Below the pieces are notes generated by a model, which was not told where the DNA came from, searched no databases, and was given only the letters and a program-made list of their open reading frames with translations. Positions 1 through 50,649 of a DNA stretch of 64,000 nt are shown here, piece after piece. Source of the DNA: a virus; IMG/VR virus record IMGVR_UViG_3300047445_000314, positions 1 through 64,000 of that record; one strand, written 5' to 3'. Numbering within the stretch: the first letter of the stretch is position 1; every line of letters starts with the position of its first letter. The translations under genes were made by a program, and so were the position numbers.

Positions 1-561
1 ATGGTCCGCTTTGAAGGCATGCGCATTGTCCAGCGCGGCAACGGCATGACGGAACTGATGCCGGTCGCGGTGGTCGAGATGGCCTGTTCGATTGCACCCG
101 ACGCGAATAATGAGATAGACGTCGCGGAAATCAGAGCATTCGTCAAGCACCTGAAAACCAAGTATGGCTACCCGATTAAATCGGTATCGTACGACGGCGT
201 AGACAGCCGCGAATCGATCCAGGCATGGCGCAAGGATGGCATGCGCGCCGTCATGGTCTCGGTTGACCGTACCGCGATCCCGTATAAGCAATTCCGCGAC
301 GCCCTATACGACACGCGAGTCCTGCTACCCGAGAACGATATATTAACCACCGAGATACTGGAATTGGAGTACGACGAGAAGGCCGATAAGATCGACCACA
401 CCGTCATCGGCACCAAGGACGTCTCGGACTCGGTGTGCGGGGCCTATACTAACATGCTGGAACGGCGCAGTACCTGGTCGGCGGCGGCTGGCGATGACGC
501 TGTGCACGCAGAACAACAACGAGCCACCTTCGATGATAGATTTGACGCCCCGCGACAGTGA
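1..561 (+). CDS. terL: Terminase large subunit, C-terminal nuclease domain (probably 5'-truncated by the window edge)
   Basis: Motifs 'IKSVSYDG..SRESIQ', 'SVDRT' and 'KIDH..GTKDVSDSVCGAY' are typical of the C-terminal RNase H-like domain of phage terminases. Confidence 0.8.
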   Translation: MVRFEGMRIVQRGNGMTELMPVAVVEMACSIAPDANNEIDVAEIRAFVKHLKTKYGYPIKSVSYDGVDSRESIQAWRKDGMRAVMVSVDRTAIPYKQFRDALYDTRVLLPENDILTTEILELEYDEKADKIDHTVIGTKDVSDSVCGAYTNMLERRSTWSAAAGDDAVHAEQQRATFDDRFDAPRQ

Positions 562-16582: not shown

Positions 16583-17269
16583 ATGAAGACCATTGAAGCC
16601 CTGATCCCCGCGCCGACCGCGCAGGCCACCCCTGTCGTCGGCAAGCCCAAATCGCTGCGCAAAGGCAAAGCAGCACAGATTACCGCCGCCGCGCCTGCGG
16701 AAGATAGCGCGTGGCCCTTCCCGACCACGGCCAAGGAACTCCTGAAGACCGAGACCAAGCCCGAAGTCAAGACCCTGTCGCCGTCCAGCATCAAGGCCAA
16801 GAACACGGCCAAGCCCAAGGTGCAGGAGAAAGTCAAGGACACCGCGCCGGTCGCTGTCGAGACCTTCACGCCGCGTCTGATGACCAAGGGCCAGCCCATC
16901 TTTGCACTCGACGAGCTGCGCCGTCCGGGTTCCGGCGCGATGCTGTTCGCCCACACCCACGCCGTCCTGACGATCCTCGGCATGCTGGATGCGGCGCGAC
17001 CGGCTGTCAGCAAGTCGGCCCTGCTCACCATGATCGGCAAAAGCGCCGTGAACCACCACACCAAGAAGGATAATCTGGAGAGCGCGCCGGACAACAAGAT
17101 TCGCCTTTCTGTTACGGGCTACAACTTCTTCAAGGCGCGTGTCAGCGAGAACAAGTTCAGTTCGAACGTTGCCAGCGCCTACCAGTCGGCGATCCTGGAC
17201 GGCACCCCTAGTGATCTGACCAGCCCCAAGGTCACGAAGGCCAGCCTGTACCAAGTATCGTTCGGCTAA
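16583..17269 (+). CDS. Protein with a K/A/P-rich N-tail and putative wHTH (paralog of 34425-35012)
   Basis: Shares the 'GSGA.LFAHT.A.L' and 'L(S/T)..G..(F/H)F.AR' motifs with 34425. Confidence 0.75.
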   Translation: MKTIEALIPAPTAQATPVVGKPKSLRKGKAAQITAAAPAEDSAWPFPTTAKELLKTETKPEVKTLSPSSIKAKNTAKPKVQEKVKDTAPVAVETFTPRLMTKGQPIFALDELRRPGSGAMLFAHTHAVLTILGMLDAARPAVSKSALLTMIGKSAVNHHTKKDNLESAPDNKIRLSVTGYNFFKARVSENKFSSNVASAYQSAILDGTPSDLTSPKVTKASLYQVSFG

Positions 17270-29216: not shown

Positions 29217-30523
29217 GGAGAACCGGCCATGGATACCCCTGAAGGCACCACGCATACAATGCCATTCTACGGCAGTACGCATTTTTTCAAGCGCACTGAG
29301 TACGACCACCTGAACCAAGTATCGGAGCAATGGGAAACGCTCGTGTCTTGGTCTTTCTGGAACGGCCGGAAATGGGTTGACAGTGGTCCGGAGTTCAGTG
29401 ACCGCCGTCTCACGCCGCTGTAGCCGGGCGCGGATGGTCTTGAACCTCATTTTGCAATCAACATCAAAAAATCTACTGAAAGGAATATCATGAGAACGCC
29501 TATAACCCTGGTTGTGTATTTTGATAGTCTGCAAGACGCGGCATATCCGAATGGCACATGGGCGTGTGGTATCCCCGGCCAAGATACCTACTACGGCGAC
29601 ACTCCTGAAGCCGCGTTGGCGGCATGGCGTGCAGCTAACCCTAAATGTCAGTGAAAGGAAATACCATGAAACGCAGTGACAAGAAACCGGATGGCAACTG
29701 GCACAACATCAGCGAGGTGGAGCCGATGGAGGAAGGCCTGTACTTTGTTAAAGTAGATGCCAAATATACTTTTACACACTACGCATACTGGGACGGCCTG
29801 GAATGGAAGTCAGCCAATAGTACAATCTCCTACGCAATGCAAGCCGTGAACAAGAGCCATGTGCTGTATATGCATGGCGCGCAATGGTGCGGGGCGGCAT
29901 GAAAATCCACTACAACGACGCCAACGCCACGGTGCGCAACTTCGCCTGGGCGGCGGCTTGCTGCCAAGGCTACAACCCATGCGACCAGGTGTTCTGGAGT
30001 ATGTTCAACACCAAGCCCATCCCCGACAACCTCTGGCTGGGCGGGTTGCGGTCGATGTACGAAGACGTCATCCGTGGCCAGTTCCCCGACCTGATGATCG
30101 AGATACCGGACGACTTCCTGCACTGGCTCTGGAGTCCGCTCGGCTTCTGGCACCGGGTCGATGGCCCGCAGCGATTGTGAAAAGGCGCGGAGGGGCTATG
30201 AGAATACCGACCAACACCGGCCGCCTGAACGTATCGCAGCCCAACGTCCAGTACCTGCCTGGCACGCCACAGGCGCAGGCTGAATTACGGCACATACGGG
30301 CCGCGCTGAGCTACTACACCCTGCCGCTCTACTCGCATCATGGGCGTATCCTGCATCGGTATCATGGGGAAAGTTTTGAAGACCGTTTCATCATGGATGA
30401 CTTTGGCAACGCCTACAAGCTCACTGACTACCAGTACCACTACTACGTACAGGAATTCATCCTCAGCGGTTATACGCCGATCTAGGGGCTTTGCAATCGA
30501 CTGCAATATTTCGCGGAGGAAGT

Positions 30524-30862
30524 ATGGAAACCAATATAAGTGATGCCTTTGCCCAGCACGAAGCGCAATACAAGACCCGCGTCATGCACGCTACGTGGGG
30601 GCACCTCGCGCCGGAGCCACTGAAGGAATACCCAGGCCACATGCTGTTTGCATGGGGCCAATACGGAGACATTGTGATAGTCGACTCAGACTTCGGCGAC
30701 CTGCCCGGCTCTCCATGGCGATACAGTGCGGAGCACGACTTTGCTGGCAAGACAACCAAGATTAAAGAGCGCGGAGGATTATACAAATTTACAGGCAAGC
30801 TACGCATGTGCAGGAACGGCGTCATCAAATTCATTGGCAAGACGGTGCGCGTGCGGCCGTAG
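30524..30862 (+). CDS. Hypothetical protein (cassette 1)
   Basis: GGAGG RBS supplied by the repeat. Confidence 0.75.
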   Translation: METNISDAFAQHEAQYKTRVMHATWGHLAPEPLKEYPGHMLFAWGQYGDIVIVDSDFGDLPGSPWRYSAEHDFAGKTTKIKERGGLYKFTGKLRMCRNGVIKFIGKTVRVRP

Positions 30863-30889
30863 CCTAACATTTCGCGGAGGGTCTGACCT

Positions 30890-31090
30890 ATGTATGGCTA
30901 TAAAGCATATAACCATGAAGTGACGTTTTGGGTACGGCGCGGCGGAGGCCTTGACTGGTCCGGCTATACCATCCATGTGAGGACCAAGCATCCTGGAAGA
31001 ATAGCCGACCTGGTTCTGGCGTTCGCCATGCGCCGTGAGCCTAAGCTGACCAAGTTCGACGTACTCATCACCAGTGTAGGAATCGTGTGA
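30890..31090 (+). CDS. Hypothetical protein (cassette 2; paralog of 31325)
   Basis: MYGYKAYNHEVTFWVRR...; RBS from the repeat. Confidence 0.75.
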   Translation: MYGYKAYNHEVTFWVRRGGGLDWSGYTIHVRTKHPGRIADLVLAFAMRREPKLTKFDVLITSVGIV

Positions 31091-31108
31091 ATATTTCGCG
31101 GAGGGTTT

Positions 31109-31297
31109 ATGAACATTACTGATATCCATCCCGGACAAGTAATCACTGTCCACAACCAAGGCACCAACATCACCCCGGTGGACATCGAAGTCACGGTTCT
31201 CTGGGTTGGCCCGAACGCGGTCCATTACTACTTCAAAGGTGATCGGACCCCGCGTGAGACCTCGCGCGAGCGGTTCCTGGAGATCGTTAATCAATAA
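31109..31297 (+). CDS. Hypothetical protein (cassette 3)
   Basis: RBS from the repeat. Confidence 0.7.
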   Translation: MNITDIHPGQVITVHNQGTNITPVDIEVTVLWVGPNAVHYYFKGDRTPRETSRERFLEIVNQ

Positions 31298-31324
31298 GCT
31301 GAACATTTCGCGGAGGGCTTTGAT

Positions 31325-31522
31325 ATGTATGGCTATAAGGTGTACGACCACGAAGTAAGATTCATCGTGCGCCGCAACGGCGGGTGGTCTGATGTATTCA
31401 CGATTCGTGTCAGGACCAAGCAGCGCGGCAGGATAGCCGACCTGGTCCTGGGCTACGCCACGCGGCGCATTCCTGAACTCACCCGGTTCGACGTGTATAT
31501 TACGGGCGTGTATATCGTGTAA
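31325..31522 (+). CDS. Hypothetical protein (cassette 4; paralog of 30890)
   Basis: MYGYKVYDHEVRFIVRR...; RBS from the repeat. Confidence 0.75.
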   Translation: MYGYKVYDHEVRFIVRRNGGWSDVFTIRVRTKQRGRIADLVLGYATRRIPELTRFDVYITGVYIV

Positions 31523-31945
31523 CATTTCGCGGAGGGTCTTTCTACTTCCCTATATACCTCATAGACGTGGCTCATCCCTCCTTTAAACTCTGAAGGGCGC
31601 GGGTGGGCGCGCAGGCTTCTATGCAATTGTCCTCAATCCTACAGGCTGTCTACGAGGCTTTGTGTTTAGACCGTGGAGTATCAACTGCACATTTTTACTA
31701 GAAACAATACTTTTGAATTCATTATCGGTCATGACTGCCGTCGTGTCTGATCCTACCTACTTCGCATACGCCCCGTACCTACAGGCTCCCTGGCTTATCG
31801 CACCCTGGCCGTGGCCCCTCTCAGGTGGGCACTGCAATCCCTATACTACACCCCTGGTGGTGGGCATGTGTACTGTACTACTGCTACTGGTGAGGTGGTG
31901 AATTAGCTGTTATGATCAGTACTCTATTCAAACAAGGAGGCTGTT

Positions 31946-32305
31946 ATGGGTATCGGAAAAGGAAGTGGGCGTGGTGGTGCGCGTGCTGGTGCTGGTAAGA
32001 AGAGTGTAGATAGCGCGGAGATCGTCTACTCGGCTACGGTGACTGTTGACGAGACCACCCGCGCCCTATTGTATGAACTAGGTAACGGCAACTACTCACT
32101 AGGCGCGCGAAGGGCTGCTGCTGAACTGCTGGAGTACCGTAAGGGTAACGTAGGTGGGCATGTGAAACGTAATACTACACACGCTGCTGCGGTGAAGAAA
32201 GTTCAACCACCCGCGCCTGCTCAACCTGTACGTTCCATCCTACGGCGTCCTGGCACGGAACCGGTACTGCCGCGCGACCGGTATGCTGTCTACAGCGATG
32301 ATTGA
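31946..32305 (+). CDS. Putative DNA-binding protein (GGARAGAG-K motif plus RHH-like region)
   Basis: AAGGAGG RBS; 'RGGARAGAGKK...TVTVDETTRALLYELGNGNYSLGARRA'. Confidence 0.65.
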   Translation: MGIGKGSGRGGARAGAGKKSVDSAEIVYSATVTVDETTRALLYELGNGNYSLGARRAAAELLEYRKGNVGGHVKRNTTHAAAVKKVQPPAPAQPVRSILRRPGTEPVLPRDRYAVYSDD

Positions 32306-33489
32306 TCCTGGTCTACAATGAATTTGCAATTGATTGCATAATGGAGTCTCTTACCCCACCCTACGGGAGAACGCCATGAACACCGTCTCATCTACCGCGC
32401 AAGTTGCCACCACGCCTTATGGCGATGCGATCTACCAAACGTATCATGGCGCGTTCGGCCTCATTGAAACGACCATTCCTTTCCTCGGTCACTTCGACAT
32501 CGGCATCCATGACGATATGGGCAATGTGGTTCCGGCCAATTTCGGGCAGATGTTCGCTGGCTTACACGACGCCGACCAGAATCACTAAACTGGATTTCGC
32601 GAGGGGTTCTGTTACGGCATAATGGAATCTCTCACCCCACCCCGCGTTACCTTGATTACCTTGAAAGGAATCATCATGAGTCACTACACCGTCAATTTCA
32701 CCGGCAACGCCGCCGCTGTCCACAAACAAGCCATCGCGGAATGCAAGCGTTGGATGGGTGCCAAGCGCTTCAAGGAATTCATGGAGAACCTGCGCGCCTT
32801 GACGGCCAAGGACAGCAGCACCACACGCCTGCGCCGGATATACTTCTACGCAGGATTGACTGGCATGCAGGGCCGCTCTGTTGTCCACGCGCTCTACCGT
32901 GAATCGGTCAAGTAGTCCACCTCATCCACCATAAGGAGCTATCATGAAAACCGTGCCAGCACTCAACCCTAGCCGTCCCCTCAGCAACCTTGGCTACCTG
33001 TCGGATATGGCCATCCGCGCCCTGTTGCGCTCCTTCCCACCCGACGCCGACATCACCGTGGGCGACATCTTCATCAAGGTGGCATCCCCGCAAGGAGAGC
33101 CGGTTCTGAGCGCGGCGCGGCTGACCCGGAATAACTGGCATGTCCGGGCGCGCGCCGGTCTGATTACCGCAACGTATCCACAGCATCTGAGCTGAACGAA
33201 GGTAAGCTGAACCCCAAGCCCACCCGCGCAGGTGGGCACAGTTTTCCTTATACTACATCGCTGCTGCTGCACCCCTGGTGGGCACGGCCCACGCTATACT
33301 GCTGCGCTGCTGGTGAGGGCGTTCGTGATAGAGTATGTGCTGCGCTGGTGCTGTACTGCTGACGTGGTGGTCCTGGTGATGTGGTGCGCGGGTGGTGTAG
33401 TAGGACACACTGCTGCCCACCCTACCTCCTCCTGCCATGGCATAATGAACTCCTCACCTCCCCACCCACGCACCTAGAAAGGGCATATC

Positions 33490-33750
33490 ATGAAAAACGC
33501 GCACAGCATCGTCAACGAACGCGGTTGGAACGTCCATGAATGGCAGCTTAAGGAAATGCTCGGCCTCTCGCGGAAAGCCAAACTTCCCGCCGCAGGCTTG
33601 CCAGAACAAGTCGTACAGGGCGTCACGGTATGGGCTAAGCCGCTCGATCCTAATCGCCGCCAGCGCGCGCCACATCGCATGATGGCGCGTTGCCCGCAAT
33701 GCGGTAAAGAAATGAGCGCGGGTCGTCTGTTCCAGCACGTTTGCAAGTAA
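33490..33750 (+). CDS. C2H2-type zinc-finger protein
   Basis: 'RCPQCGKEMSAGRLFQHVC'; leader motif at 33471. Confidence 0.7.
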   Translation: MKNAHSIVNERGWNVHEWQLKEMLGLSRKAKLPAAGLPEQVVQGVTVWAKPLDPNRRQRAPHRMMARCPQCGKEMSAGRLFQHVCK

Positions 33751-33756
33751 TTGCAC

Positions 33757-33780
33757 GCGCCCTCCGGGGCGCTTTTCTTT
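33757..33780 (+). terminator. Rho-independent terminator
   Basis: GCGCCC-TCCG-GGGCGC followed by TTTTCTTT. Confidence 0.75.
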
Positions 33781-34338
33781 GCGCGCAGGCTCCATGTGCT
33801 GTACTGCTGTTTACCCTGTAGGTGGGCACGGTGATCCTTATACTACCCCGCTGCTGGTGCACACGTTCGTGATTATTTTCCCTGCTGCGCTGGTGGTGTG
33901 CTGAAGGCGTGCTGCTGCTGGCGTGGTGAGGCCCTGAGAACGCCAGGTGGGCATGTGCCAAAAACAACCTATTTTGTGCTGGTGAGACCGACCGCGCCCC
34001 ATGCACCGACCAGGACCAGGACGGCGAGCGCAAAACCCAAAACCCGATGCACCGCATACGAGGGAATCGATCAGGAAGGGATCGGCCTCGCGTTGACGTA
34101 CGCCAAGAATGCGCGAAGGCAATCTCATGTATAAGACCCGGCGCAGGTCATGTATAAGACCGTACCGCAGTCTTATAGCTTTTCCGGTATATGTACGTTT
34201 ATACAGTAAAACGCGCAGGTTCGACGATCGGACAGTCGCCAATGCCTTCCTATGCACGGCGCGCAGGTCGCCTAAAAAGCGCCTTAAAACGCGTTTAAAC
34301 GGCATCCGATTATTTTGCAATCAATGTCAAAATTCGCC

Positions 34339-34366
34339 TTGAATTGCTTGTTTTATTCCCTATAAT
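34339..34366 (+). promoter_or_regulatory. sigma70-type promoter next to a palindrome site
   Basis: TTGAAT-16-TATAAT; palindrome at 34315-34330 just upstream. Confidence 0.65.
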
Positions 34367-34424
34367 GAATTTAGCGCGGCAACAAAGCGCGCCCCTCCCC
34401 AGCTATCCACAATTGGAGCTAGTC

Positions 34425-35012
34425 ATGAATACCGATAACAAACCAGTCGCAAACCCAGTCGCAAACGCTTTCGGCGCTTTCGTCGCCAGCGCGGAAATCG
34501 CCAAACAAGCTACCGCGCCAGTCGTCGCGCCGGTTAAGGCAAAGACCGTCAAAACGACGACAGCCACCAAAGCGAAAAGCACGCCCGCGATTGCCATGTT
34601 CTCCCTCGTCAATCACCCTTTACAGTTCATTGTCCGCGATGGCTCAGGCGCAGCTAAGTTGTTCGCACATACGGCCGCATGGCTTGACCTCACCGGCTTG
34701 ATCCGGGGCGAATCATACCCGGCCGACATTATTCGCGAATTGGGGGGTTCGGCTTATTCCAACCATACGCGACTTGGCAATTTTACCGAATCGCAAGGTA
34801 TGGCGTCCCTCACGCCGCAGGGTTTGACGCATTTTCGCGCAAGGGACACGAACAGCGCCAAAGATATTCCCTCCGGCAAACAAAAGTATTTGATTGAGGA
34901 CAAAGAACATTACATGCTAATGATGATGGAAGGCGTCAACGATGCGCGCTTAGTACGGTCCGAATTGACCGTTAAGAAAATCAGCGCGAAATTCCCGCAG
35001 TATTTCAAGTAA
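34425..35012 (+). CDS. Protein with a K/A/T-rich N-tail and putative wHTH (paralog of 16583-17269)
   Basis: GGAG RBS; shares motifs with 16583; the gene contains no CTG or GTG trinucleotide. Confidence 0.8.
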   Translation: MNTDNKPVANPVANAFGAFVASAEIAKQATAPVVAPVKAKTVKTTTATKAKSTPAIAMFSLVNHPLQFIVRDGSGAAKLFAHTAAWLDLTGLIRGESYPADIIRELGGSAYSNHTRLGNFTESQGMASLTPQGLTHFRARDTNSAKDIPSGKQKYLIEDKEHYMLMMMEGVNDARLVRSELTVKKISAKFPQYFK

Positions 35013-35075
35013 GCAATACCGGGGGGAGTCAGACACTCCCCCTCTTTCCCTCATCTACCCTCATTGGAGATTGCC

Positions 35076-35405
35076 ATGAAACAACATTCCCTCCGCGCCT
35101 ATCGCGCCGCCGCACAAGCGTCATCCCCTTGCTATTGCGCATCATTCGACGCGCAAGGCAATATCGTCGAAACGGAAATCGCCCAGCGCGCACCGATACG
35201 CGCATGGTCCGACTTTGAACCCGACGAAGTACACTACACACACCGTATCATGGCCTTGCAAGAAACAGGCGAGGAAGTATTCTACTCGTATGCGACCGAA
35301 CGCACCGCAGCGCGCAAGATCACCGAAGCGCACAGGCAGCATGTCGAATGGCGTCGCGTATGGTCCGAAGCACTCCCCCGCCATGGCGCACCACGTAGCA
35401 TCTAA
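35076..35405 (+). CDS. Hypothetical protein
   Basis: GGAG RBS; lies within the CTG/GTG desert. Confidence 0.65.
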   Translation: MKQHSLRAYRAAAQASSPCYCASFDAQGNIVETEIAQRAPIRAWSDFEPDEVHYTHRIMALQETGEEVFYSYATERTAARKITEAHRQHVEWRRVWSEALPRHGAPRSI

Positions 35406-35606
35406 GCGGCGCGCAGGGTCTACTAAGCGCGCTCCCTTCCTTCCATACATTGGAGAACATCATGAAAAACATAGTCGCCCTTGTCATCGCTACCGCATCC
35501 GGCGCAATGATCTACCTTACTGCCTCCGGTATCCATGACAGTATCATCCGGGTTGCGCAGGCAGTCGTTATTGCAGCACACTAACAATTACAAAAGAGAG
35601 AATATC

Positions 35607-35765
35607 ATGTTGCTTACCGCTTGCATTATCTTCGCCCTTATCATGTCCTTACCCGCTATCAATGCGGCGCACGCTCAGCTTGCCATTGTCAAACAGCAGC
35701 GCAATTACGACAGCGAATTGCAGCGCGACAAATTTGCACGCGGCAAGTTGCACGAGGAAAAGTAG
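35607..35765 (+). CDS. Small membrane-anchored protein
   Basis: Hydrophobic N-terminus; AGAGAG RBS. Confidence 0.5.
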   Translation: MLLTACIIFALIMSLPAINAAHAQLAIVKQQRNYDSELQRDKFARGKLHEEK

Positions 35766-35959
35766 TTCCAAACGACAATTATCCTATGCTCGGTATTCCC
35801 ACACGGAAAAATTGAGCATAGGAAATAAAAAATTTCTCATATCGACGGGCGGTGAGCGTTTTTTGTACCTACAGAGTTTTCAACTACCCTTATCAGTTTC
35901 TTCTCCCAGTATTCCCTCTTCCCCCAGCCAGCGTCATGGTCTTCTCTTGCACAGTTCAT

Positions 35960-36076
35960 GACCGGGATCACGACCGGGTACGGGTATGCGTTTATGGCCG
36001 GGTACATTGACCGGGATCGCGTCCGGGTATATAGAAAAATTTTGAAAAGGGCTGTGTCTCGGTACTTGGCCGGGTT
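35960..36076 (+). repeat. Cluster of short CCGGG(T/A) direct repeats
   Basis: About seven copies of (G)ACCGGGAT/CCGGGTA, the first six at roughly 8-17 bp intervals, in non-coding DNA. Confidence 0.7.
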
Positions 36077-49033: not shown

Positions 49034-50649
49034 GCAATAACCGTATCACCCGCACCGCGCGCCCGAGTAAGGAACGCAGCATCACTGCCACCGCGCGCAC
49101 CATCACCATCAACCGCGCCGACCATTCGACCAGCAACCAGTCGGTATATGTCGACCAGATGGAAGCCATCCTGAATGGCTCCGGCATGGCGGGCACCGTC
49201 CTGCCAACGCCATTCGACATCCCGCAGCTCTACCAGATGATCAGCCGCTCCTCCATGCTGCCACAGTGTATCGACGCAATGGTGGTCAACACGGTCGAGT
49301 CCGGCTGGGAGGTCAAGCCGCTGTCGAAAAAGATCACCGTCGATCCGGACGAGGAGGACGAGCTGGAATCGTTCGTCACCCGCGCCAATACCGAGGAATC
49401 GCTGGCAGGCGTGATGAGCAAGGTCGTGCGCGACCGCGAATCGGTCGGCTTCGGCTTCATGGAGGTGATCCGCGACCGGGGAGGCAATATCTCGTTACTG
49501 CGTCACGCCCCCTCGCTGACCACGCGCCTGACTGCGCGCCACCAGAAGGAGGTGCCGGTCAAGTACGACGTGCCGCGCGGCAAGCGTACCGCCGTGGTTA
49601 CCGAATACAAGCTGTTCCGCAAATATGTGCAACTTGTCGGCGGTAAGCTGATCTTCTTCCGCGAATTCGGCGACCCACGCAAGATGGATTCGGTCACGGG
49701 GGCCTTCGAGGGCGAGCCTGGCTTCCCTCTTGGTGACGTCAAACTAGCCACCGAGATTTACCACACACGACTACCTTCCAACGACGCCTACGGCCTACCG
49801 CGCTGGCTGAGCCAGATACCGTCGATGATCGGTTCGCGCGAGGCCGAGGAAGTGAATATGAGATTTTTCGAGGACAACACCATCCCGCCCGCGATGATCA
49901 CCGTCTCCGGTGGACGGCTGACCGCCGCCTCGTATCAGGAAATTCAGCGCGTGATCAACACCGGCACTGGTAAGGAGCGTCAGAACAAGATGATCCTGAT
50001 CGAGGCGGTGGGTGATGGCGACACCATAGACAAAGGTGCCTCGCCGATCACGATCCACATTGAAAAGCTCACCAGCGAGCGCCCCTCCGACGGCCTGTTC
50101 AAGACTTACAAGGAAGGCAACCAGGCCGACCTACGCAGCTCGTTCCGCCTGCCGCCGATCTCGGTCGGCATGTCGCAGGACGCCAATTTCGCCACGGCGA
50201 ATGTCAGCCAGTTTGTAGCCGAGGCACAAGTATTTGCACCGGCCCGCCAGCGCGAGGACGAGGCGCTGAACAACCTGATCGTGCATGGACGTAATGGTCT
50301 GCGCCTGAAAACCGTGAAACTGGTGGCCCGGCCGCCGTCGATCTCCTCGCCGGAGATGACGATGAAAGCATTGACCGCGCTGAACGTCATGGGCGCGGTC
50401 ACGCCGCGCTCGGCGCAGATCGTCGCCAACGCGCTGTTGCAGATCGAGCTGCCGCCGTATCCGGAAAAAGGCGAGGATGGCTACGAGGACTGGATGGACA
50501 TGCCGATGCCGCTTTCCATGAAAGCGTCGGGCGCGGCGGAGGTCCCGGCCAACACGCATGATGAGCAGGCAGGCAAGGACGCGGCGGGTAAAGCCCTAGA
50601 GGCTAACGGCAATGTCGCCCCGGCCTCGCCGGAACACGGCCAGGAGTAA
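49030..50649 (+). CDS. Portal protein (PBSX/HK97-like)
   Basis: 'GFGFMEVIRD..G', 'YGLPRW', 'N.RFFEDNTIP', 'SSFRLPPISVG...NFATA'; position upstream of the head genes. Confidence 0.92.
   Translation: MSNNRITRTARPSKERSITATARTITINRADHSTSNQSVYVDQMEAILNGSGMAGTVLPTPFDIPQLYQMISRSSMLPQCIDAMVVNTVESGWEVKPLSKKITVDPDEEDELESFVTRANTEESLAGVMSKVVRDRESVGFGFMEVIRDRGGNISLLRHAPSLTTRLTARHQKEVPVKYDVPRGKRTAVVTEYKLFRKYVQLVGGKLIFFREFGDPRKMDSVTGAFEGEPGFPLGDVKLATEIYHTRLPSNDAYGLPRWLSQIPSMIGSREAEEVNMRFFEDNTIPPAMITVSGGRLTAASYQEIQRVINTGTGKERQNKMILIEAVGDGDTIDKGASPITIHIEKLTSERPSDGLFKTYKEGNQADLRSSFRLPPISVGMSQDANFATANVSQFVAEAQVFAPARQREDEALNNLIVHGRNGLRLKTVKLVARPPSISSPEMTMKALTALNVMGAVTPRSAQIVANALLQIELPPYPEKGEDGYEDWMDMPMPLSMKASGAAEVPANTHDEQAGKDAAGKALEANGNVAPASPEHGQE

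Follow-up and report, generated by a model that had tools for sequence, protein, structure and literature searches.

A one-strand trinucleotide desert in a siphovirus genome

The stretch analyzed here (the window) is the first 64,000 nucleotides of the 99,206-bp IMG/VR virus record IMGVR_UViG_3300047445_000314. The phage, labelled G000, is a siphovirus with every gene on the + strand, encoding a portal, protease, tape measure and endolysin as well as a replication set of DnaB-like helicase, family A polymerase and TOPRIM primase. Between 33985 and 36051, the + strand is almost devoid of the trinucleotides CTG and GTG (jointly STG). This desert covers a non-coding head, a promoter and four small genes, and is preceded by three tracts saturated with the same words (Table 1). 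STG density flips from the genome peak to zero at 33984/33985. The desert is a DNA-level element in which the nucleotide sequence of one strand is under selection, and not a property of the mRNA.

Table 1. Features of the desert and its flanks (window coordinates; RBS, ribosome-binding site; ORF, open reading frame).
Feature	Position	Strand	Details
STG-saturated tract a	31805..32000	+	promoter-like repeat AGGTGGGCAC-N9-TATACTAC at 31823, variant at 31859 (family D1); 25 STG/200 bp, genome rank 3
STG-saturated tract b	33230..33431	+	promoter-like repeats at 33230 and 33276 (families D1, D3); 29 STG/200 bp, genome rank 2
Minor purge between tracts b and c	33432..33789	+	one STG (33727) in about 360 bp
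86-aa gene, zinc-ribbon-like C-terminus	33490-33750	+	1 STG vs 11.9 expected by codon resampling
Intrinsic terminator	33757-33772	+	within minor purge
STG-saturated tract c	33790..33984	+	promoter-like repeat at 33820, variant at 33946; one GCTGGTGG at 33889; 30 STG/200 bp, genome rank 1
Strict CTG/GTG desert	33985..35519	+	0 STG vs 52.6 expected by genome frequency
Full desert	33985..36051	+	2 STG (CTG 35520, GTG 35852) vs 70.8 expected
Non-coding head of desert	33985..34338	+	354 nt, without credible ORF; TGCAA..TTGCA-type palindrome copy at 34314; similar sequence in L025
Sigma-70-type promoter TTGAAT-N16-TATAAT	34339..34366	+	10/12 consensus matches; L025 counterpart TTGAAT-N17-TATACT
Gene A, 195 aa	34425..35012	+	disordered Lys/Ala-rich N-terminal tail, then winged-helix-like globular domain
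Gene B, 109 aa, no known family	35076..35405	+	RBS present; no Pfam or PHROG match; 0 STG vs 9.2 expected
Small hydrophobic peptide gene, 40 aa	35462..35584	+	RBS present; holds exception CTG 35520
Small membrane-protein gene, 52 aa	35607..35765	+	RBS present; 0 STG vs 5.6 expected
Hairpin past last desert gene	35782..35823	+	inverted repeat I7; weak terminator candidate
Five CCGGG(A/T)(T/A)(C/T) repeats, then A/T run	35959..36030	.	2 + 3 on either side of a 16-bp spacer; two with GATC (direct repeat D20)
CTG+GTG doublet, first words past desert	36052..36056	+	predicted boundary or cut position

The absence of the words is extreme under both expectations used, the whole-genome frequency and a first-order Markov model fitted to the desert. 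An initial annotation of this DNA had reported no STG in the strict desert and a single CTG and a single GTG through 36051. Our counts match these exactly, and its estimate that several dozen would be expected by chance is borne out by the genome frequency. The Markov model, fitted to the depleted sequence itself, expects 20.8 STG at 33985-35519. The uninterrupted + strand gap spans 1538 bp between 33982 and 35520. The proposed strand specificity likewise holds, as the minus strand is normal (53 STG in 33985-35519) and other words are frequent on the + strand of the region (ATG 39, TTG 39, CAG 44, CAC 33). Among the 64 trinucleotides of the entire record, CTG and GTG have the two most extreme gaps, and these are co-located (lambda x gap 33 and 24, against about 16 or less for the remaining words). 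The next largest STG gaps measure 332 bp (35520-35852) and 295 bp (33432-33727), both part of the same feature, followed by gaps of 236 bp or less. A zero-set statistic over 1200-bp windows yields 41 for the desert and 11 for the runner-up window. By this statistic the desert is the single outlier of the genome. The ORFs are intact, and no one trinucleotide has been enriched in compensation. Chance, composition and mutation bias are ruled out as causes by the gap, window and resampling statistics together with the lack of a compensating word. A separate absence concerns GAG, missing from the + strand over 1150 bp at record positions 76,467-77,617 (lambda x gap 16.2), which is the third most extreme trinucleotide gap of the genome.

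Within genes, resampling of synonymous codons indicates that the loss of STG arises through synonymous codon choice. The four desert genes are expected to carry 16.9, 9.2, 3.6 and 5.6 STG in order and carry 0, 0, 1 and 0 (35 vs 1 summed). CTG accounts for 55% of leucine codons in the long genes of the genome and for none of the 26 in the desert genes. Non-coding DNA is purged as fully, with no STG at 33985-34338 where 12.1 are expected. In relatives avoiding other words (see below), spacers past strong terminators are word-free as well (Agrobacterium phage JP1, 86470-86649, 0 vs 12.6 expected; Rhodobacter phage RcTiptonus, 93875-94091, 0 vs 15.8). Codon bias is ruled out as a cause because non-coding DNA and every frame show the purge, as the initial annotation had argued; the resampling adds that codon choice is itself under selection.

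The left flank carries the reverse signature. The mean STG density of the genome is 6.9 per 200 bp (standard deviation 2.9), and tracts a, b and c hold the three highest ranks. Each of them opens with a promoter-like repeat, GGTGGGCAC-N9-TATACT. The words occur mainly as adjacent doublets at about 10-nt spacing. The four possible pairings are found 32, 28, 26 and 17 times, with CTGGTG no commoner than the others. An STG-dense tract at the left edge had been noted before; tract c abuts the desert and is the densest of the genome. The depletion previously described for the gene at 33490-33750 is confirmed by resampling and extends over the minor purge between tracts b and c.

Gene A has 22 homologues without a Pfam family, and its AlphaFold2 model (mean predicted local distance difference test score, pLDDT, of 77) gave weak fold matches, all to winged-helix proteins. 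Pfam and PHROGs searches of the desert and flanking proteins and of 30 further proteins recovered no modification, nuclease or RNase candidates, and no Rfam RNA family matched in 31-37 kb. At the right edge, the CCGGG(A/T)(T/A)(C/T) cluster may be a packaging-site (pac) element. Four CAGGGTCATG repeats lie at the syntenic place in the isolated Pseudomonas phage SM1 (Samunavirus). An A/T run is found 10-45 nt upstream of the right boundary in all five phages compared (G000, the virus contig G001, JP1, RcTiptonus and the Rhodobacter phage RcDurkin). The boundary doublet of G000 has analogues in GTGCTG in G001, AGAAGG in JP1 and AGT at base 3 of the RcTiptonus and RcDurkin records.

Deserts in relatives and the packaging cut

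The design is conserved in phages that share little else. G001, a 99.5-kb virus contig, has a portal about 53% identical to that of G000 and almost no DNA similarity to it. CTG and GTG again show the two most extreme trinucleotide gaps, co-located at 77.5-78.9 kb and straight after the densest STG tract of the contig. A tblastn comparison of G000 with G001 found no match among the genes of the desert region. The groundwater contig L025 (1149 bp) encodes a gene A homologue with 50% protein identity and has its only three STG within the first 11 bases, leaving the other 1138 free of the words. This was the only closer relative of the desert genes in metagenome contigs, and none was found in viral or genome contigs. 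In SM1, the saturated tracts are present and STG depletion is only about 2.5-fold. By reading, gene A-type genes probably occupy the matching region of L025, JP1 (JP1_136), RcTiptonus (gene 139) and SM1 (gp093).

Other members of the group avoid a different set of words. In JP1, [A/T]G[A/G/T] words saturate a purine-rich tract, and the next 1.42 kb lack TGA, TGG, TGT, AGA, AGG and AGT altogether (0 vs 99 expected). The Rhodobacter phages RcTiptonus and RcDurkin (RcF) avoid the same six words over 1.43-1.45 kb. The comparison with relatives envisaged in the initial annotation thus recovered the same design in G001 and L025 and an alternative word set in JP1, RcTiptonus and RcDurkin. G000, G001 and JP1 have one such element per genome, each directly downstream of the densest word tract of that genome. 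Desert lengths are alike (1.3-2.1 kb) while gene content differs. No such desert was found in T5, L338C, RcZahn, HJ05 or TM16, and a comparison of gene presence between phages with and without a desert yielded nothing useful.

The RcF phages lend indirect support to a link between the desert and a genome end. RcTiptonus and RcDurkin are the only relatives with mapped ends. Base 1 of their records was set from PhageTerm, which indicated a P1-like, well-defined left end produced by pac cleavage, with packaging proceeding rightward and the genome given once per record (PMC8601537). The desert extends to the last base of both linear records, and the first avoided word stands at base 3. Since base 1 is the pac end and the desert fills the end of the record, the RcF desert occupies the final 1.4 kb ahead of the pac cut. 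The purged strand in these phages therefore ends 3' at the DNA end left unpackaged from the cut. By analogy, we infer that the G000 desert ends at a pac cut near 36050, because of the shared A/T runs and syntenic short-repeat clusters. A strict desert accompanies a defined pac end in the RcF phages, while an absent or partial desert accompanies genomes reported as circularly permuted. RcZahn, reported as circularly permuted, has none, and the Samunavirus UF_RH6, also reported as circularly permuted (PMC10281142), has only a partial one.

These observations bear on the earlier proposal that the desert marks a genome end or an origin and leaves a 3' single-stranded tail. The end is favored by analogy with the RcTiptonus and RcDurkin cuts, and nothing indicates an origin. 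The tail is favored insofar as, at the pac end of these two phages, a 3' tail would consist of the purged strand. A fixed, first-entering terminal repeat finds no support, as the RcTiptonus record contains no terminal repeat. Relatives with mapped ends package by a P1-type headful mechanism and the block is therefore not a fixed first-entering end. The earlier alternative of first-injected DNA or RNA is weakened because a headful segment is not a fixed first end and because apparently untranscribed spacers are purged.

Several minor features lie near the cut or the desert in relatives. Just past the RcTiptonus pac cut (L071, 1-270), about nine copies of GACATAACCGATT and two of AAATTCCAGCATATATTG may be binding sites of the terminase small subunit. 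The non-coding head of the G001 desert (record 77,510-77,560) holds DnaA-box-like nonamers, one perfect and two near-perfect (TTATCCACA, TATCCACAG, TTATTCACA), in one orientation; these have no clear counterpart in G000. Right after its first STG tract, G001 (L021, 15,500-15,590) also carries four roughly 16-bp direct repeats (TGGTATATACTGTT-like) that recur every 19-22 bp and appear iteron- or operator-like. JP1_136 (JP1 record 85,781-86,407) is annotated as a GIY-YIG endonuclease, although a GIY-YIG motif was not seen and the protein is gene A-like by reading. Its counterpart in the phage FBPa45 is annotated "alginate regulatory protein AlgP", probably owing to Lys/Ala/Pro repeats. Three further records also begin at the element: that of FBPa45 starts exactly where tract a ends, that of RcKickapoo 66 nt inside the desert behind a C9 run, and that of RcMenchie 238 nt ahead of the RcTiptonus cut. 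No method is published for these starts, which may be assembly breaks at repetitive tracts, and we do not count them as end evidence. If the desert were itself a direct terminal repeat, the three starts would fall into place, but such a repeat is unsupported.

Candidate readers of the avoided words

Between 50 and 100 expected occurrences of two to six trinucleotides have been removed from one strand, across phages without DNA similarity. Because the purge is kept across diverged phages, with words switched between clades and a boundary at a mapped cut, each occurrence must be harmful. The implied reader would have three-base specificity and act on one strand at a genome end. No such three-base one-strand reader has been described for these phages, and a literature search turned up no account of a trinucleotide purge that is local, confined to one strand and adjacent to a saturated tract. 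We tentatively suggest that the purge was selected at the DNA level on the strand ending 3' at the unpackaged pac end and that the reader is most likely the phage's own DnaG-type primase. The + strand from the last saturated tract to about 36050 would have been cleared of words read by this one-strand enzyme. The purged strand would be the lagging-strand template for forks moving toward the unpackaged end. The tracts might force priming at the inner border and the 1.5-2 kb beyond would be unprimable. The unprimed stretch could stay single-stranded and provide a defined 3' tail for strand invasion and recombination-dependent replication. Alternatively, a single Okazaki fragment starting at the first word past the boundary might cover the stretch. 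The promoters embedded in the tracts may serve to open the DNA for the enzyme.

A hallmark of DnaG-type primases is trinucleotide recognition on single-stranded DNA, with a specificity that varies by class (PMC2978363). The TOPRIM/DnaG_N primase of G000 (record 97459-98469) has a Cys/His zinc-ribbon motif conserved in relatives. CTG and GTG fit primase start words, having a central T, that is, a central pyrimidine that gives a purine-first primer. The primase of the host is a poorer candidate than that of the phage. The initial annotation had built on priming at CTG by E. coli DnaG, and gamma-proteobacterial DnaG initiates on CTG and CTA (PMC2978363). CTA is not depleted in the desert (18 observed vs 16.5 expected), whereas GTG is absent (0 vs 19 expected). 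Host DnaG is ruled out as the reader because CTA is not avoided. The pRN1 primase, invoked earlier for its priming at GTG, is irrelevant as a parallel.

Several findings weigh against a phage primase. JP1 and the RcF phages avoid six words with a central G, on which a primer would begin with C, and no characterized DnaG-type primase is known to start this way. The JP1 and RcF primases are just 33% identical, yet the word set is common to both, and L338C and HJ05 carry homologous primases without a desert. One primer on the tail would merely shorten it, so that a total loss of 50-100 sites exceeds any obvious need of the model. The two exceptions in G000 sit toward the outer end, where priming predicts the strongest selection, and the small internal purges (33432-33789 in G000; about 90,800-91,170 in RcTiptonus) lie away from an end. 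Probable early genes with host-type promoters lie in every desert, which makes a transcription-linked cause possible.

The main rival is a strand-specific nuclease, which we consider doubtful but clearly ahead of the remaining alternatives. A nicking or single-strand endonuclease of the phage or its host, with a degenerate 3-base site, would cut the word-bearing strand, and the purge would keep one strand uncuttable. The protected strand could be the plus strand or, if CAG/CAC are taken as the words, the strand that serves as template for the early genes. The tracts would be programmed nicking zones, and the block could be neither broken nor blocked for transcription. Such an enzyme accounts for a total purge, since one cut matters. 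It also accommodates purged spacers, internal mini-purges and word sets with any central base, and the roughly 10-nt phasing of tract doublets suits an enzyme approaching one face of duplex DNA. Phage-encoded HNH nickases beside packaging genes have strand-specific, partly degenerate sites of 3-7 bp, such as S^RT (PMC3592412). However, no candidate nickase was found. The small endonuclease before the portal gene is SNase-like, so that an HNH nickase beside the portal gene is ruled out. There is also no sign of a modification protecting the rest of the genome, and the end of the block exactly at the pac cut is not obviously explained. Toxin RNases with 3-base, partly degenerate sites are known, and the words could instead be harmful in RNA if the earliest transcripts avoid the target of a MazF- or RegB-kind endoribonuclease from the host or the phage, with the saturated leaders as decoys. 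The sense strand is indeed the purged strand, and the block carries probable immediate-early genes and a near-consensus sigma-70 promoter. Total avoidance would be explained if one cut is enough to inactivate an mRNA, as it is, and small genes just past other tracts are purged too. Yet avoidance does not appear confined to transcribed RNA. Promoter regions and spacers past strong terminators are purged, as are the 354 nt upstream of the gene A promoter. In RcTiptonus and RcDurkin, the purge also takes in 217-290 nt that look untranscribed and reach exactly to the pac cut. An mRNA-level cause fails for the 217 nt of RcTiptonus because this word-free stretch lies between the last terminator and the cut. 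With a normal word density in the rest of the genome and no RNase gene identified, we regard RNA-level immunity as unlikely.

A role in the control of RecBCD or AddAB appears similarly improbable. The tracts would then be Chi-like arrays stopping a host helicase-nuclease that enters at the unpackaged end, and the desert would be a signal-free run-up. The E. coli-type octamer GCTGGTGG can be read as G-CTG-GTG-G, and perfect octamers stand in the tracts (one of the three plus-strand copies of G000, two of three in G001 and both copies in SM1). Their orientation would be the active one relative to a right-edge end like that mapped in RcTiptonus and RcDurkin. Alpha-proteobacteria typically use AddAB and gamma-proteobacteria RecBCD, and the word set differs between RcF/JP1, with alpha-proteobacterial hosts, and the G000/G001/SM1 group. 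We know of no use of the GCTGGTGG octamer by Pseudomonas RecBCD. The lack of a preference for CTGGTG among the tract word pairs rules out the octamer as the selected unit. Early recognition of Chi would do no obvious harm, and an 8-mer needs no 3-mer purge because chance alone would leave 2 kb free of Chi. Least probable is a motif-specific base modification, in which the phage would modify T or G in the words and one strand of the block would have to stay unmodified, for instance for packaging-site recognition or early transcription. Base replacement at short motifs is known in phages. G000 has thymidylate-synthase-like, dNMP (deoxynucleoside monophosphate) kinase-like and MazG-like genes, and a dCTP deaminase and a glycosyltransferase are annotated in SM1 and JP1, respectively. 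The window contains no DNA transglycosylase, DNA kinase or methyltransferase that we could find, and the effects of modification are additive, so that a total purge of one strand is not expected. RNase immunity, Chi-type control and base modification are thus weaker candidates than the phage primase or a nuclease.

Should a phage enzyme read the words, the template specificity of uncharacterized phage primases or nickases would be readable from the genome, as CTG/GTG here and as [A/T]G[A/G/T] in the alpha-proteobacterial phages. The element would then give rise to a terminal segment of defined extent, single-stranded or uninterrupted, and might even set the genome end. Identifying the reader would bear on how pac-type phages handle the unpackaged end, restart concatemers and define genome ends. 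It would also offer a computational route to such elements and enzyme specificities in uncultured phages. Isolated and easily grown relatives are available among the Rhodobacter RcF phages, Agrobacterium phage JP1 and the Pseudomonas Samunavirus phages.

Comparison with known systems and further observations

With some hesitation, we propose that the element may represent a novel type of polar cis element carried by tailed phages, consisting of a tract saturated in the three-base target of an enzyme that tracks along one strand and then 1-2 kb of target-free strand ending at the packaging cut, which would programme where a replisome or nickase acts. Its parts recall several established systems. 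The primary origin of T7 combines the promoters phi1.1A/B with gene 4 sites, and oriF and oriG of T4 combine a middle promoter with an unwinding element. G000 likewise has promoters followed by sites of a trinucleotide-primase type on the displaced non-template strand, as well as its own helicase, primase and polymerase, although priming at these sites is putative. Unlike the G000 element, the T7 and T4 origins have single sites, without 200-bp saturated tracts, and no kilobase site-free zone has been described for them. The G000-type element further differs in adjoining the packaging cut in relatives. The cos-Chi arrangement of lambda shares a polar one-strand signal upstream of the packaging cut, on the strand ending 3' at the exposed end, and the E. 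coli-type octamer occurs in the G000 tracts. In lambda, the unpackaged cos end is the entry point of RecBCD, and Chi works in a single orientation. The selected unit in G000 is a 3-base word and not an octamer, and Chi systems have no adjacent purge.

Early-gene blocks at a genome end are known from T5, whose terminal repeat is first-step-transfer (pre-early) DNA with the A2 DNA-binding protein, a small membrane protein (T5.005) and an injection stop signal. The G000 desert resembles this block in carrying a DNA-binding-type protein (gene A, with a predicted winged-helix-like fold), two small hydrophobic ORFs, a sigma-70-type promoter and a repeat-rich non-coding border. T5-type modules also occur elsewhere in G000, including a dNMP kinase, a ligase N-terminal domain and the polymerase/helicase/primase set. 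In contrast, the desert genes have no sequence homology to T5 genes, and T5 is ruled out as a direct model as it has no trinucleotide desert anywhere. Avoidance of restriction sites, of CRISPR protospacer-adjacent motifs and of MazF-type targets resembles the purge in that a short word is lost by selection via synonymous codons. Those cases are genome- or gene-wide and, for DNA targets, affect both strands, whereas the G000 purge is local, restricted to one strand, includes non-coding DNA and lies beside a tract saturated with the same word. At the pac site of P1, short GATC-containing repeats lie clustered around the cut, and the first cut is a defined one. The 2 + 3 repeats at the right edge of the G000 desert, two of them with GATC, are similar in layout. 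They share no sequence similarity with P1 pac, their pac role is presumed, and a word-free flank is not known for P1.

The G000 contig is probably not complete despite an estimate of "100% complete". It begins within the C-terminal part of the terminase large-subunit gene (window 1-561) and stops within the N-terminal part of a gene (record 98,850-99,206) located 13-14 kb from the terminase gene in SM1 and G001. About 13 kb are probably absent because the contig end and start match genes 13-14 kb apart in these relatives. The roughly 13 kb of SM1 equivalent to the gap include annotated RecA-like, exonuclease, resolvase and ParB-like genes.

Further repeats and matches lie outside the desert or across the genome. 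An array immediately upstream of tract a (window 30505-31540) consists of five repeats of 16-20 bp, each providing an RBS to a short ORF. AT-rich palindromes of the type TTGCAATCGATTGCAA stand between genes genome-wide in G000 (30490, 32323, 34314 and many more). The relatives have intergenic palindromes of their own (TGCAAGCGCTTGCA in SM1, TTGCAAACGTTTGCAA in JP1 and TTGCAATCGCTTGCAA in RcTiptonus), and copies occur inside every desert. A 228-aa ORF (window 16583-17269), outside the desert and normal in word content, has a single tblastn match in SM1 (38% identity), which falls inside gp093, the presumed gene A counterpart. A weak gene A-like match also occurs in G001 (64,874-65,206 of its record). 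At 49,600-50,300, the same contig has about 600-700 bp without TAA, TAC, TAG, TAT, GTA and CAC, a TA-free stretch that is probably low-complexity coding sequence.

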